From Candidatus Bathyarchaeia archaeon (GTDB taxonomy: Archaea; Thermoproteota; Bathyarchaeia; 40CM-2-53-6), in the NCBI GenBank assembly GCA_050013255.1, contig JBEKFP010000002.1, forward strand, positions 32,001 through 96,000: 64,000 nt of DNA. The letters run 5' to 3'. This document shows, in pieces, positions 28,475 through 51,906 of this stretch. The notes below the pieces were generated by a model. It ran no database searches and had not been told where the DNA came from. It saw only the letters and a list, made by a program, of their open reading frames with translations. The translations under genes and the position numbers were made by a program. Position 1 is the first letter of the stretch, and each line of letters begins with the position of its first letter.

Positions 28475-29428
28475 ATGAAGGTGCTTGTAACTGGTGGAGC
28501 TGGGTTCATTGGGAGCCATCTTGTAGAAGCTTTACTGGCGCATGGCGACGATGTTGTCGCACTGGACAACCTCAGTAGCGGTAGTTTGGATAACCTGCGC
28601 GAGTCGTCAAGCAAACCTGGCTTCAATTTTGTCGAGGCAGACCTGAAGAACTTTGGCGGATGGAATGAAGTCTTGGATGGAGTGAAACTGGTTTATCATT
28701 TCGCCGCCAATCCTGAGGTAAATGTCGGCGAAACCAACCCCGCCGTGCATTACCAGGAGAATCTTTTCGCAACATTCATGTTGCTGGAAGCGCTTCGCAA
28801 GAGCAAGGGTGCAAAGCACATCGTGTTTGCCTCCACTTCCACAGTGTACGGCGAAGCGTCTAAACTACCCACCCCTGAATCCTACGGGCCACTTTTGCCC
28901 ATCTCTACGTACGGTGCATCCAAGCTAGGCTGCGAGGTTCTCCTCAGCTCATACTCATATACGCATGGGATGCGCGCTCTAATCTTACGCCTTGGCAACT
29001 GCGTCGGTTCACGAGCAAGACACGGCGTCGTAGTGGATTTTATAAAAAAGCTGAAAGCGGATGCCACCGCATTAGAGATCCTAGGCGACGGAACCCAGAA
29101 AAAATCCTACCTCCACATCGAAGACCTCCTCGACGCGGCCGGGTTCATTAGGGATCGTTTCTTATCCTCTGAACAACGTGTCGACGTCTACAACCTCAGT
29201 TCGGCGGACCAAATCACCGTCAAACGCATCGCTGAAATTGTCGCCCAACAAATGGGCCTGCATGGAGTAAAGATGAATTTTACAGGGGGCGTCGACGGCG
29301 GGAGGGGATGGTTAGGGGACGTCAAACAAATGCACCTCTCCATCGGAAAACTGCGAAGGCTGGGTTGGACTCCGAAACTCAACAGCGAAGCCGCAGTACG
29401 GAGGGCGGCGAAGGAGCTCTTGGCCTAG
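28475..29428 (+). CDS. NAD-dependent UDP-glucose 4-epimerase family protein
   Basis: VLVTGGAGFIGSH, STSTVYG, YGASK, GWLGDV. Confidence 0.9.
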   Translation: MKVLVTGGAGFIGSHLVEALLAHGDDVVALDNLSSGSLDNLRESSSKPGFNFVEADLKNFGGWNEVLDGVKLVYHFAANPEVNVGETNPAVHYQENLFATFMLLEALRKSKGAKHIVFASTSTVYGEASKLPTPESYGPLLPISTYGASKLGCEVLLSSYSYTHGMRALILRLGNCVGSRARHGVVVDFIKKLKADATALEILGDGTQKKSYLHIEDLLDAAGFIRDRFLSSEQRVDVYNLSSADQITVKRIAEIVAQQMGLHGVKMNFTGGVDGGRGWLGDVKQMHLSIGKLRRLGWTPKLNSEAAVRRAAKELLA

Positions 29429-30159
29429 TGTCTAGACCGCAGAAATCCCAACTTATCATTACCCTCCCAGTCTACAGAGACGTAGCGTTCCTTGAGAAGA
29501 CAGCTGACGCCCTCCAAGAGATCACGCCCTCTATCTCGAAGGATTTCATCCTCTTGATCGCCGAAGACGGGTCCAACTCTTCAGAAATAGTTGAGAGACT
29601 CCGAACGAAATACCCAAACATCATCTACTTTCAAAATGATCGCAGATTGGGTAGGGGGAAGGCACTGCGGGAGGCTTGGAAGAAAGTCCGAGGCAACATT
29701 TACGCCTATATCGACGTGGACCAGGCGACAGATGTCACGAGACTAAATGCATATGCGAACCTAATCAATCTACAAGGGGACTTTGACCTCGTTACTGGGT
29801 CACGGTATATTGCAGCGTCGGTAACAGCGCGCCCTTGGCTTCGAAGAACCGCATCAATTGCATACAACTGGTGGGTTCGAATGATGTTCCGGACCGGGGT
29901 TCACGACCACCAATGCGGATTCAAGTCCTTCTCACGTGAATTAGTTGAACGACTGGCCATTGAGGCCAAGAGCGATTCTTGGTTCTGGGATACAGAGGTT
30001 ATCGTTCTCGCTAGGAAATTAGGGTTTAAAGTAAAGGAAATACCGATCTACTGGACCGAGAAAAAGGGGCGAAGAACGCCCGTCAAACGTCTACTAAAGG
30101 ACATATGGCTTCATGGAATCGGGATGCTGGGCCTGTTTTACAGGATCTGGCTCTGTTAA
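29428..30159 (+). CDS. GT2 dolichyl-phosphate glycosyltransferase (AglD/Alg5-like); last 3 codons replaced by the mobile-element insertion
   Basis: IAEDGS, GRGKA, YIDVD, TGSRY, DHQCGFK, WFWDTE; the empty site would read ...FYRIYIA*. Confidence 0.85.
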   Translation: MSRPQKSQLIITLPVYRDVAFLEKTADALQEITPSISKDFILLIAEDGSNSSEIVERLRTKYPNIIYFQNDRRLGRGKALREAWKKVRGNIYAYIDVDQATDVTRLNAYANLINLQGDFDLVTGSRYIAASVTARPWLRRTASIAYNWWVRMMFRTGVHDHQCGFKSFSRELVERLAIEAKSDSWFWDTEVIVLARKLGFKVKEIPIYWTEKKGRRTPVKRLLKDIWLHGIGMLGLFYRIWLC

Positions 30160-30205
30160 CTTGTCGGCGGACGTCGTTTAGTTTCATCCTCCTGTCAACG
30201 CTTTA

Positions 30206-31420
30206 TTGTTCAGCCGAAAGAGGCCAGTCGTCGACACAACCTTGCTTGCGGTCAAGGCGGTTCAGCAAAACTATACGCCGAACAGCCAGCTACTCGCCTT
30301 GCTTGAACAGTTCCGGCAAATGGTCAACGACTCCATTAGAATCGGACTCGCCGAGAACGTTACCAGCCTCAAGTCACTCTCCACCAAAGCTTACAATCAA
30401 CTTGCAACCTACGATGTCATGAGTTACTACAAACTCTGCGCAATCAGCAAAGCCACAGGCATCCTCAAGAACTACAGGAAAACGGAACGAAGAGGTAAAC
30501 GGGTCAGCAGGCCCTACGCCCGAAGACCGCAACTCACAACATGCTACGGATTCAAAATAAGCAGCGGAAACCTCCTACTGCCCATCAAGCCGAGGAGCAA
30601 TATCAGAATCCCCCTAAATCGTCATACGTTGCAGGTTCTTTCCGAGACTCGCCTAACGGCTCGATCGGTCACCCTCACCGCGAGCACAATTACCGTGGCC
30701 TACTCGAAAGATGTCCCAACTTTGGAACCGAGCGGATTCATGGCTATAGATAGGAACCTTGACAACGTGACAATAGCCGACTCAAACGGCTCAATCACGC
30801 GGCATAACCTATCAGAGGCTACGGAAATCAAGGCCATGTACCGTGAAGTGAAATCCCATCTGAACCGTAACGATTCCCGCGTAAAGCAGAGAGTCTACGC
30901 AAAGTACGGTATGAGGCAGCGTAATCGCGTGAGGCAACTTCTCCACCTAACCTCGAAACAAATTATCACAGAAGCTAAGAGTAGTAAGTCGGCGATTGTG
31001 ATGGAACGACTGACAGGAATACGCAAACTCTACAGGAAAGAGAATGGACAGGGTCGTAATTATCACGCAAGGATGAACGGTTGGAGCTTCGCGGAGCTGC
31101 AAAGGCAGGTTGAGTATAAGGCTAGATGGGAGGGCTTGCCTGTAATCTACGTGAACCCGTATGGTACTTCAGTGAAGTGTTCGATATGTGGGTTAAGAAT
31201 GAAACCCGAAGAGAACCGAACATTGAAGTGCCGTTCTTGCGGATTCACGGTAGACCGTGACGTGAATGCTGCTAGGAATATTCTAGCGGCTGGTATGAGA
31301 GCCCTGAGGTTCGGGGCCGTCGCGCCTGCAAGTGAAGCAATGGTACAAGAACCCCAGCGTAGGGTAATCTTGAAAGTCGATGCAGACGAGTTGACCGACC
31401 GGCATCCGCCGACAAGTTAA
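30206..31420 (+). CDS. tnpB: RNA-guided endonuclease TnpB
   Basis: RuvC-I AIDRN, RuvC-II IVMERL, WSFAELQRQVEYKA, YTS-like GTSVKCSIC...CRSC zinc finger, RuvC-III DRDVNAARNIL. Confidence 0.95.
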   Translation: MFSRKRPVVDTTLLAVKAVQQNYTPNSQLLALLEQFRQMVNDSIRIGLAENVTSLKSLSTKAYNQLATYDVMSYYKLCAISKATGILKNYRKTERRGKRVSRPYARRPQLTTCYGFKISSGNLLLPIKPRSNIRIPLNRHTLQVLSETRLTARSVTLTASTITVAYSKDVPTLEPSGFMAIDRNLDNVTIADSNGSITRHNLSEATEIKAMYREVKSHLNRNDSRVKQRVYAKYGMRQRNRVRQLLHLTSKQIITEAKSSKSAIVMERLTGIRKLYRKENGQGRNYHARMNGWSFAELQRQVEYKARWEGLPVIYVNPYGTSVKCSICGLRMKPEENRTLKCRSCGFTVDRDVNAARNILAAGMRALRFGAVAPASEAMVQEPQRRVILKVDADELTDRHPPTS

Positions 31421-31427
31421 CAGAACC
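31295..31427 (+). ncRNA. Putative omega-RNA scaffold overlapping the tnpB 3' end (guide would be the flank from 31428)
   Basis: Position typical of TnpB omega-RNA; conserved second copy at 51405-51527 with a compensatory base-pair change; 5' boundary approximate. Confidence 0.7.
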
Positions 31428-50168: not shown

Positions 50169-50801
50169 TTGAAAGTTGACTATTTCACATCAAAATCCCA
50201 AATAACAATGGTCCATACTCGTATTCTTAGCGATCGTAGAATGGTCCTGTTCAAGACGACCCTGATCGGCGTATGTATCCTAGTCGCTGGCATGCTGCTG
50301 CTAACAACACTTGGGTCGTACGTGACGGTTGAGGTGCAGCAGGTGCAACACCGCGATGTTGAACCGCACGCCGAATTTCTCGTAGGAGACGTGGCGGACA
50401 GAACCTATACCCTACCAGCCAATGTAGCCGCCTCAGGGTCTGTCGATGTAACCCAGGCACCGACAAACGCGTCCGGTGACATTAGGTTCATGGTTTTTGA
50501 CGACAACGACTACCAGAAGTGGAATTCCGGCCAGCAATCAAACTTCCTGTTCTCAGCCGATAACCAAGGCAAATTCATTTTCAACTTCACAACCACCAAC
50601 ACTGGAGTCTACCATTTTGTCTTTGACAATCGGGCTTCACTGTTCAAGAAGTACATAGTTCTCTCGGTCGGTTACAGCGAGGTCACAATTAGCCACGTTC
50701 CTGACCCACGCGTACCCACCATCGGGTGGGCATTGGCGGTGGTCGGGGGAATCCTTCTAGTTTATGGGTTGGCGAGGAAACCGCCCATTCCATGGGGCTA
50801 G
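50169..50801 (+). CDS. Membrane protein with emp24/GOLD-like extracellular beta-sandwich
   Basis: N- and C-terminal TM; DIRFMVFD...GVYHFVFDN. Confidence 0.65.
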   Translation: MKVDYFTSKSQITMVHTRILSDRRMVLFKTTLIGVCILVAGMLLLTTLGSYVTVEVQQVQHRDVEPHAEFLVGDVADRTYTLPANVAASGSVDVTQAPTNASGDIRFMVFDDNDYQKWNSGQQSNFLFSADNQGKFIFNFTTTNTGVYHFVFDNRASLFKKYIVLSVGYSEVTISHVPDPRVPTIGWALAVVGGILLVYGLARKPPIPWG

Positions 50802-50979
50802 GAGTTCTGTTACCCCTTCGTTTGCTGTATTATTTTCAGTGACCTCACTGCTTAATTCTGGGTTCGACGTCAGCTTGCTTAGTCATCAGTTGATGAAGCC
50901 TCGTCAAAGGCGATATGCGGGTTCTAATACCCGAATTAGCCGACGGGGCCGATGGTGAGGTAGGGAGTTGCCTGACCAA

Positions 50980-51309
50980 TTAAGACCACGTCACTTCAAA
51001 TCTTTTGGCTATCTCTTCTCCAAAACGTAGTTCGAGATAGTAAAGAACGTTACAGAGCTTACAACGAACCTCCAAGTCGTGCGTTCTTCTTCTGCCAGTC
51101 GCTATTGCGTGAAGAAAGTCGTACCCGCGCAAATTATGACTCTCCCTTCTCCCGCCTCCACTGCGATGGTTGATTTCCAAAACGCGTGAATCGTCACAAC
51201 CGCAGTTCACACATTTTGGCCCGCCCAATTTGTCGAGTGCTCGCCTTCTGATGTTTGCGCCATATTCAATCTGATACAGCCGTTGTCTTTCTGGGTCTTT
51301 GTATGGCAT
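50980..51309 (-). CDS. Small HNH (beta-beta-alpha-Me) endonuclease-like protein
   Basis: MPYKDPE start; CVNCG...LEINHRSGGG...LEVRCKLCN. Confidence 0.75.
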   Translation of the reverse strand: MPYKDPERQRLYQIEYGANIRRRALDKLGGPKCVNCGCDDSRVLEINHRSGGGRRESHNLRGYDFLHAIATGRRRTHDLEVRCKLCNVLYYLELRFGEEIAKRFEVTWS

Positions 51310-51404
51310 GGTGGTCTTTCATTAGAGTTGAAGTTGACACTAAAAGTTTTATGCAGTGTAAAACCCTGACATGCAAACGGTCTAACTGATCCAGTGAATG
51401 CTGG

Positions 51405-51527
51405 ATGAGAGCCGTGAGGTTCGGGGCCGTCGCGTCTGCAGGTGAAGCGATGGTACAGGAACCCCAGACTGATGGCAATCCTGAAAGTCGATGCAGATGA
51501 GTTACCAAACGACAAGGTAACAGAACC
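51405..51527 (+). ncRNA. Stand-alone omega-RNA scaffold copy (guide would start GGGCTAGGCAAC)
   Basis: Closely similar to 31295-31427 without a tnpB ORF; compensatory CAGGA/TCCTG pairing. Confidence 0.7.
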
Positions 51528-51579
51528 GGGCTAGGCAACTTCAAATAGAGTTGCACTGTAAGCCGTTCTCGGTTTCATA

Positions 51580-51906
51580 ATGAGCGGGCTTACCAAGAAG
51601 ATTGTGGTCGCTGACCATAGGTTATGCGCAATCCTTGGCGTGAAGGAAGGTGAGCTGGTAAGCTACGCGCAACTATCTAAAGGCCTCCACAAGTACATCA
51701 AAGATAACGACCTGAAAAACCCTCAACGCGCACACCCTTCAACCCCAACTAGCACGCCTACCCTTGTAGCCACCGAACCAACTTTACCGGCGACCCGTTC
51801 GACCGTTCTCCCTGCAATCTCCGCGGACATCAAGAAGTGCAAGGATTGCGGCGCCGAAATTCCAGCCGAGGCCACTTTCTGCGATCTTTGCGGCGTAAAG
51901 CAATAG
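51580..51906 (+). CDS. SWIB/MDM2-like domain plus C-terminal zinc ribbon
   Basis: LCAILG....VSYAQLSKGLHKYIKDNDLKNP; Pro/Thr linker; CKDCG...FCDLCG. Confidence 0.65.
   Translation: MSGLTKKIVVADHRLCAILGVKEGELVSYAQLSKGLHKYIKDNDLKNPQRAHPSTPTSTPTLVATEPTLPATRSTVLPAISADIKKCKDCGAEIPAEATFCDLCGVKQ

Follow-up and report, generated by a model that had tools for sequence, protein, structure and literature searches.

Why does a short transposable element of a Bathyarchaeia archaeon from a peat setting carry a nuclease gene in the midst of a guide-type RNA? The element occupies positions 50803-51527 of the window, i.e., the whole stretch of 64,000 nucleotides analysed here. A preliminary description had placed the HNH gene beside an RNA of ~170 nt and divergent from it. 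Five cassette-free MITEs of the same genome revealed another arrangement, in which the HNH cassette sits antisense inside an RNA of ~270 nt. The features are as follows.

50792-50794, plus strand: triplet ATG 5′ of the duplication, a target-preference or TAM-like motif (on the basis of T at -2 and a purine at -1 in bounded elements)
50795-50802, plus strand: left copy of the 8-bp target duplication, containing the stop codon of the upstream gene
50803-51527: the element, 725 bp, with imperfect inverted repeats and an exact 8-bp duplication
50803-50819, plus strand: left terminal inverted repeat, IS6-type
50852-50855, plus strand: TATA-like box, the predicted RNA promoter
50881-50979, plus strand: 5′ arm of the RNA (omega-RNA-like 5′ domain), with a mean identity of 76% to type A MITEs
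50980-51355, minus strand: HNH cassette of 376 bp (promoter, leader and ORF), missing from MITEs with contiguous arms and found at the same position in L001/L048-L051/L071 and L154
50980-51309, minus strand: gene for a 109-aa zinc-finger HNH-type nuclease of a mostly viral family
51340-51347, minus strand: putative TATA-like box for HNH transcription, 31 nt before the ATG
51356-51527, plus strand: 3′ arm of the RNA, the final ~125 nt of which are common to tnpB elements
51511-51527, plus strand: right terminal inverted repeat
51528-51547, plus strand: right duplication (51528-51535) and flank, the predicted guide, a role assigned from known TnpB biology
30149-31427, plus strand: sister element with an intact tnpB (ORF 30206-31420), the same ends and an 8-bp duplication, a candidate TnpB donor in trans

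Is this copy a genuine insertion? The 725-bp unit with related terminal inverted repeats stands as first described; 11 of the first 12 bases of the repeats agree, and the 40-nt arms are 70% complementary. The exact 8-bp duplication (50795-50802 and 51528-51535) was confirmed, too. Contigs of three of four peat metagenomes have the empty site with a single copy of the 8-mer, seen as a joint from 50794 to 51528 over eight shared letters. Thus, the insertion is real and absent from close relatives, and the window copy has transposed recently. The closest relative that bears a name is a Bathyarchaeota MAG. The stop codon of the upstream gene was kept intact and its protein unchanged. The predicted guide matches the empty site only. 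A second joint in peat contigs (50923 to 51427) was considered as a cassette-free allele of the locus and rejected; it most likely comes from other MITE copies. Both elements of the window are inserted at the extreme end of a gene (50169-50801 and 29308-30159), the first leaving the protein unchanged. Directly downstream of the HNH-bearing element is a 108-aa gene (51580-51906) that has a zinc ribbon and weakly matches SWIB/MDM2.

The matches of the five cassette-free MITEs to the element fall into two blocks (79-177 and 553-702 in element coordinates), which are contiguous in the short elements and 376 bp apart in the window element. Thus, 50980-51355 is an insert, and the HNH gene interrupts the RNA, which is spread over 50881-51527 here. 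In 14 cassette-free copies, 27 of the 73 predicted pairs change on both sides, a count reached by none of 500 shuffles, although relatedness of the copies inflates such tests. The predicted helices pair at 97% (27-42% in slid controls), and the cassette lies in the internal loop that helix 6 of the consensus closes. The TATA-like box at 50852-50855 stands 26-29 nt before the conserved 5′ border of the RNA, of which it is the predicted promoter; its positions have an A+T fraction of 0.9-1.0 among 14 type A elements. A scan for sigma-70 promoters and terminators gave nothing above chance, with a model not suited to archaea. A group I intron, an IStron or any other known RNA family was rejected as the identity of the RNA, since an Rfam search with the element and four cassette-free copies gave no match, to a group I ribozyme core or otherwise.

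What kind of RNA is it? In nine tnpB genes with the same ends, the fraction of same codons, ~0.42 at first, climbs to 0.73 once 270 nt remain to the right end, and this constrained 3′ end of tnpB equals the MITE RNA core in length. The match between the right end of the window element and the 3′ end of the tnpB element, noted earlier, was confirmed at 81% identity over 140 nt. Almost the entire length of type B MITEs matches their own tnpB class, and the 5′ part of type A resembles tnpB only weakly. With an HMM restricted to the type A 5′ domain, no match to tnpB ends was found, and only the full RNA model extends into the 5′ part. I read the ~270-nt RNA as a predicted omega-RNA of TnpB. Given that processed omega-RNAs span 79 to 466 nt (PMC10278001), maturation could yield a shorter form, and the 3′ arm might still function by itself. 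It is doubtful that the window copy still makes a working guide, since its RNA is split. Single-sequence folding gave no long-range helix across the cassette, with or without it, and is uninformative on how the split RNA folds.

The right end had also been read as consistent with a deletion of tnpB. The 10-mer at 51394-51403 indeed equals 31262-31271. However, it forms the loop of a hairpin that covaries and occurs in nearly every type A MITE, and thus is no mark of a deletion in the window copy; a remote origin in the DVNA codons of tnpB is possible. Rather than a fresh deletion product, the element is a member of a large pre-existing family. The RNA defines widespread tnpB-less MITEs of ~355 bp (about 350-360 bp), five more of which are in the same genome, four of them with recognisable left ends and duplications. 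In 40 of the 105 genomes of the order, the RNA model has matches, up to 19 per genome (tnpB elements included). Two patterns of the RNA were searched in viral contigs, and neither was found.

The tnpB elements themselves form a large family in Bathyarchaeia, with IS6-type ends, 8-bp duplications and at least two RNA classes. Its members are the window element at 30149-31427, G000:C1:854024-855281, and loci L029-L034, L044-L047 and L162-L209. The genome has a second tnpB element, and the two intact tnpB genes share the ends and the 3′ part of the RNA. Some further copies are worth recording. The type A MITEs L006 and L027 share an extra hairpin of ~27 nt with a T-rich tail inside the RNA, and L006 has lost the neighbouring stem. 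An orphan right-end fragment of 50 bp (G000:C1:844049-844099, L008) was found without a partner end. At G000:C2:477462-479477 (L002), a MITE and an unpaired inverted repeat bracket small toxin-antitoxin-like genes (AbrB-like and protease-like).

Which transposase moves these elements? The ends fit the IS6 family as defined in PMC7986276, with short inverted repeats, a GG tip and a cTGTt motif, although the left tip of the window element is AG. In G313, a PF13610 IS6 transposase lies between perfect repeats that match the MITE-family ends at 16 of 17 positions. The window genome has two long IS6 transposase ORFs, and one element end (G000:C2) matches the window element at 15 of 17 positions. 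An IS4/IS5-type transposase (PF01609) was considered as the mover and rejected, none being present in the window genome. Two IS6 elements of ~3.1 kb with extra genes (G000:C1:182371-185509 and G000:C2:559197-562268) encode SWIM-finger-type transposases as in L137; the former has an exact 8-bp duplication and TTG outside its left end. No copy with both tnpB and a transposase was found among the tnpB-family elements surveyed.

All 27 bounded elements have T at -2 of the duplication, and 26 of the 27 have a purine at -1 (the xTR motif), while the mirror position on the other side of the duplication is weakly biased. The strict motif looks like a TAM of TnpB, but the transposase may set it, since the tnpB-less IS6 element in G000 also has TTG there. 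The preliminary description saw a satellite that borrows both transposase and TnpB in trans. That part has gained genomic support from IS6 transposases with matching ends, two intact tnpB genes, covariation in tnpB-less copies and the xTR motif; the part in which the window copy itself guides TnpB has become doubtful. I suppose that IS6-family transposases would mobilise in trans both the tnpB elements and the ~355-bp MITEs, which consist of ends, promoter and the ~270-nt omega-RNA. The MITE RNA would be kept folded because TnpB from elsewhere uses it to cut the empty site of the MITE. The ends, duplications, covariation and target motif were observed; binding and cutting by TnpB are presumed from them.

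These MITEs have counterparts in other systems. IS6-family MITEs of 227-336 bp with a GG..CTGT terminal motif and an 8-bp direct repeat are known (PMC7986276). The present ones share the motif, repeat and size class, but also encode a guide-type RNA that covaries, and their target motif is strict and lies on one side only. PATE-like IS200/IS605 elements carry an omega-RNA without tnpB (bioRxiv 10.1101/2023.03.14.532601); they, too, are protein-free, keep their ends and guide scaffold and are expected to use TnpB and transposase in trans. In contrast to their hairpin ends, the MITEs here have IS6-type inverted repeats and the 8-bp duplication, with which the guide would start, and an HNH insert is undescribed in PATE-like elements. 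TnpB is also found with DDE transposases and inverted repeats (branches DDE-1 to -6, PMC10691335; ISL2, IS630 and IS1031, PMC13565253), where tnpB likewise lies between inverted repeats and solo copies are mobilised in trans. However, the main texts of PMC10691335 and PMC13565253 do not name IS6 and describe neither RNA-only MITEs nor HNH inserts, and tnpB was never found here in one element with an IS6 transposase.

What is the inserted gene? The 109-aa ORF with the CxxC..NH..CxxCN motif (50980-51309, minus strand) and the AT-rich stretch at 51340-51353 are as first reported. The ORF is stand-alone, with its own start and stop. The left junction of the cassette falls exactly at the stop codon and the other edge just past the TATA-like box, an 8-mer also present in a homologous cassette, there 24 nt upstream of the ATG. 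The gene is under strong purifying selection, with a dN/dS of ~0.06 against its closest homologs (dS being saturated); the absence of such selection would have counted against the preliminary description. The protein belongs to a family of more than 2,000 representatives. H48, N87 and C33/36/83/86 are kept in 150-153 of 153 relatives, and Asn replaces Asp before the His in 148 of the 153. Atlas features assign 0.96 to viral clusters, and 31% are with PF01844. A Pfam search of the protein gave no match, and the match to the PHROG HNH profile is weak (E=0.001). The structure model (pLDDT 92.6) has a basic N-terminal helix, and its best PDB match, Gme HNH 4h9d, is weak (E=0.023, Z=4.0, rmsd 4.4 over 72 residues). 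Since 109 aa leave no separate DNA-binding domain, a long target is doubtful. The cassette contains no partner or immunity gene.

Is this a single accident? The earlier description had allowed for a one-off capture, which is not borne out. L001, L048-L051 and L071, representing one orthologous locus at another genomic site, have a 73-76% identical HNH inserted at the same nucleotide and in the same orientation (type D/B). In a third RNA subtype (L154), the P0010 HNH (49% identical) is also antisense, its left junction agreeing to within ~3 nt, while the P0061 HNH (43% identical) is antisense in the loop of a 3′ hairpin, a different site (L151). These two are the only ones inside this RNA among the 11 distant relatives looked up. 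The other nine showed no RNA (eight scanned, one judged by gene context; some contigs are short), being free-standing genes mostly in phage-like gene runs and operons. Among the HNH-family matches in 401 genomes, three of 18 are inside such elements. A 12-mer search for further junctions gave mostly chance matches and no new carrier. L151 and L154 are on short metagenome contigs, and their third RNA subtype has a shortened 5′ domain. L151 adjoins a GC-rich gene resembling glutamyl-tRNA synthetase, so the family may extend beyond Bathyarchaeia.

Such recurrence could suggest that the HNH protein is coupled to the RNA, as had been speculated. It would bind the scaffold or the TnpB particle and act as a second nuclease tethered by RNA, an extant half-way stage from a free HNH gene to an IscB-like system and a parallel, on a small scale, to the origin of IscB. 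The linkage to the same RNA has indeed recurred over a long time (43-76% protein identity), and the basic N-terminal helix would suit such binding. Nevertheless, nearly all copies of the RNA lack an HNH gene and most sampled family members lack the RNA, while the cassette runs antisense to the RNA that it splits. The protein has neither RuvC nor an RNA-binding lobe. In addition, three of 35 conserved RNA positions beside the cassette have changed in the window element (median 0), and 13-18 of 51 conserved left-arm positions have changed in the D/B carriers, where the subtype explains part of the change. This drift argues against tight coupling, which I regard as improbable. IscB of HEARO elements, a protein of ~400-500 aa with an omega-RNA, has its HNH domain inserted in a RuvC protein. 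Both systems combine an HNH domain and an omega-RNA in one transposon, but the HNH here is a separate small gene inside the RNA gene and is not fused to RuvC.

Does the nuclease rather serve the element? In L014, the body of tnpB has given way to a distant HNH, which lies in the sense orientation and is fused to the tnpB tail. The L014 protein has weak Endonuclease VII-like matches. An HNH standing in for tnpB, the recent transposition of the window copy and KolobokP as a proposed precedent (PMC13565253) would all fit a role in the spread of the element, in place of or alongside TnpB, by nicking ends or hairpin DNA and stimulating recombination or IS6-type replicative transposition. However, carriers are single-copy while cassette-free MITEs are multi-copy, ends are decayed in the carriers L001-L071, L151 and L154, and a protein-guided nuclease cannot follow changing empty sites (PMC13565253). 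Thus, a helper of this kind is unlikely, if somewhat less so than the RNA-bound nuclease.

The same L014 junction brings up the main rival to a homing gene, namely that the HNH is ordinary cargo. It would have been captured once in a tolerant loop, spread between subtypes by ordinary repeat recombination and kept for some other benefit to the element or host, as an addiction, anti-viral or repair nuclease. Other small genes have indeed been captured, replacing or interrupting elements: protease-like in L038, HicB-like in L202 and AbrB-like in L252, the last at a contig end and ~15 nt from the HNH insertion site. Three cargo genes (HNH at L014:1790, protease-like at L038:~1510 and HicB-like in L202, G236:C27) all join the right end at one position ~95 nt from the tip, which may be a hotspot of capture; the L014 HNH thus shares its junction with non-nuclease cargo. 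Moreover, cassette-free copies coexist with the carrier, and the D/B carriers have a decayed left end yet an intact ORF. On the other hand, the only genes seen with an arm of the RNA on either side are HNH genes (four loci, two sites), the cassette joins the RNA precisely at the stop codon, and it has no partner or immunity gene.

How did the cassette move? The window arms are type A on both sides (76-81% against 47-58% to type B), and the sister of the element is the cassette-free L027 (86%, support 99/97), while the other carriers group with types B and D. A single clade of carriers was rejected (p-AU 3e-5; 4e-6 and 9e-5 on the 5′ part). Thus, the cassette has moved between copies. Gain by transfer seems simpler than loss, for type A would otherwise have had to excise the cassette exactly on several occasions. 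To the left of the cassette, ~14 nt agree with subtypes D/C at 100%, whereas their identity to type A averages 78% and is 92% at best. In the L001-type element, the subtype changes ~40 nt to the right of the cassette, and L001 and L048 are identical over 630 columns and ~13% different from 16 nt left of the stop. Such clustered switches, the pattern expected of co-conversion (PMC2988022), are suggestive only of conversion tracts, as they involve few bases and metagenome contigs that are possibly chimeric; they would fit homing better than ordinary cargo. Several independent HNH captures were considered as well, and the protein tree cannot tell them from one ancient capture; a single resident lineage, as the cargo explanation has it, is neither shown nor rejected (p-AU 0.89).

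The reading that I favour gives the HNH gene an even chance of being a homing-type endonuclease gene that parasitises omega-RNA MITEs, which in turn depend on an IS6 transposase and a TnpB supplied in trans; three selfish layers would be nested in one another. The HNH gene, derived from a virus and equipped with its own promoter, came to lie antisense where the RNA is unpaired, like homing genes in intron loops. The HNH would then cleave one or both strands of cassette-free MITE copies close to the conserved site of insertion, and gene conversion would copy the cassette in. The transposase would take the loaded MITE copy to new sites, as happened recently in the window. The anatomy, recurrence, lateral movement and purifying selection were seen directly; the HNH as the cause of the movement, like every enzymatic step, is inferred from them. 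A fixed insertion site with cassette-plus and cassette-minus alleles and the many cassette-free targets (40 of the 105 genomes of the order, as above) speak for homing. Against it, carriers are rare: one of the six MITEs in the window genome, none of 59 further element ends and three of the 18 family matches in the 401 genomes. An efficient homing enzyme should have converted the neighbours. The capture of AbrB-, HicB- and protease-like genes also counts against homing, and MITE copies can recombine without any HNH. Taken together, ordinary cargo is a possible explanation to which I give rather less than even odds.

Homing endonuclease genes are known in peripheral loops of group I introns, antisense ones included (PMC3679873), and free-standing phage HNH genes of the Mob type take part in collaborative homing (PMC2988022). 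In the present case, too, a structured RNA has an antisense nuclease gene in one of its loops, some copies lack the gene, the flanks show possible signs of co-conversion, and phage-like relatives stand free. However, the host RNA is no splicing intron but the predicted guide scaffold of TnpB within a transposable MITE, the targets would be paralogs scattered over one genome, and the protein has only 109 aa. A search of the main texts in an open-access library found no paper on HNH genes inside omega-RNAs or on IS6-ended TnpB MITEs.

If the homing reading is true, a protein-guided homing gene has invaded the guide RNA of an RNA-guided homing system, a nesting of which no description was found in the papers searched. 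What emerges from the survey is a TnpB system of Bathyarchaeia with IS6 ends and a large RNA-only MITE family. The predicted RNA boundary (~270 nt), the xTR target motif and the natural insertion-tolerant loops are useful for guide engineering. On the homing reading, the locus would finally show a route of HNH genes into OMEGA transposons, the step that must have preceded IscB and Cas9.
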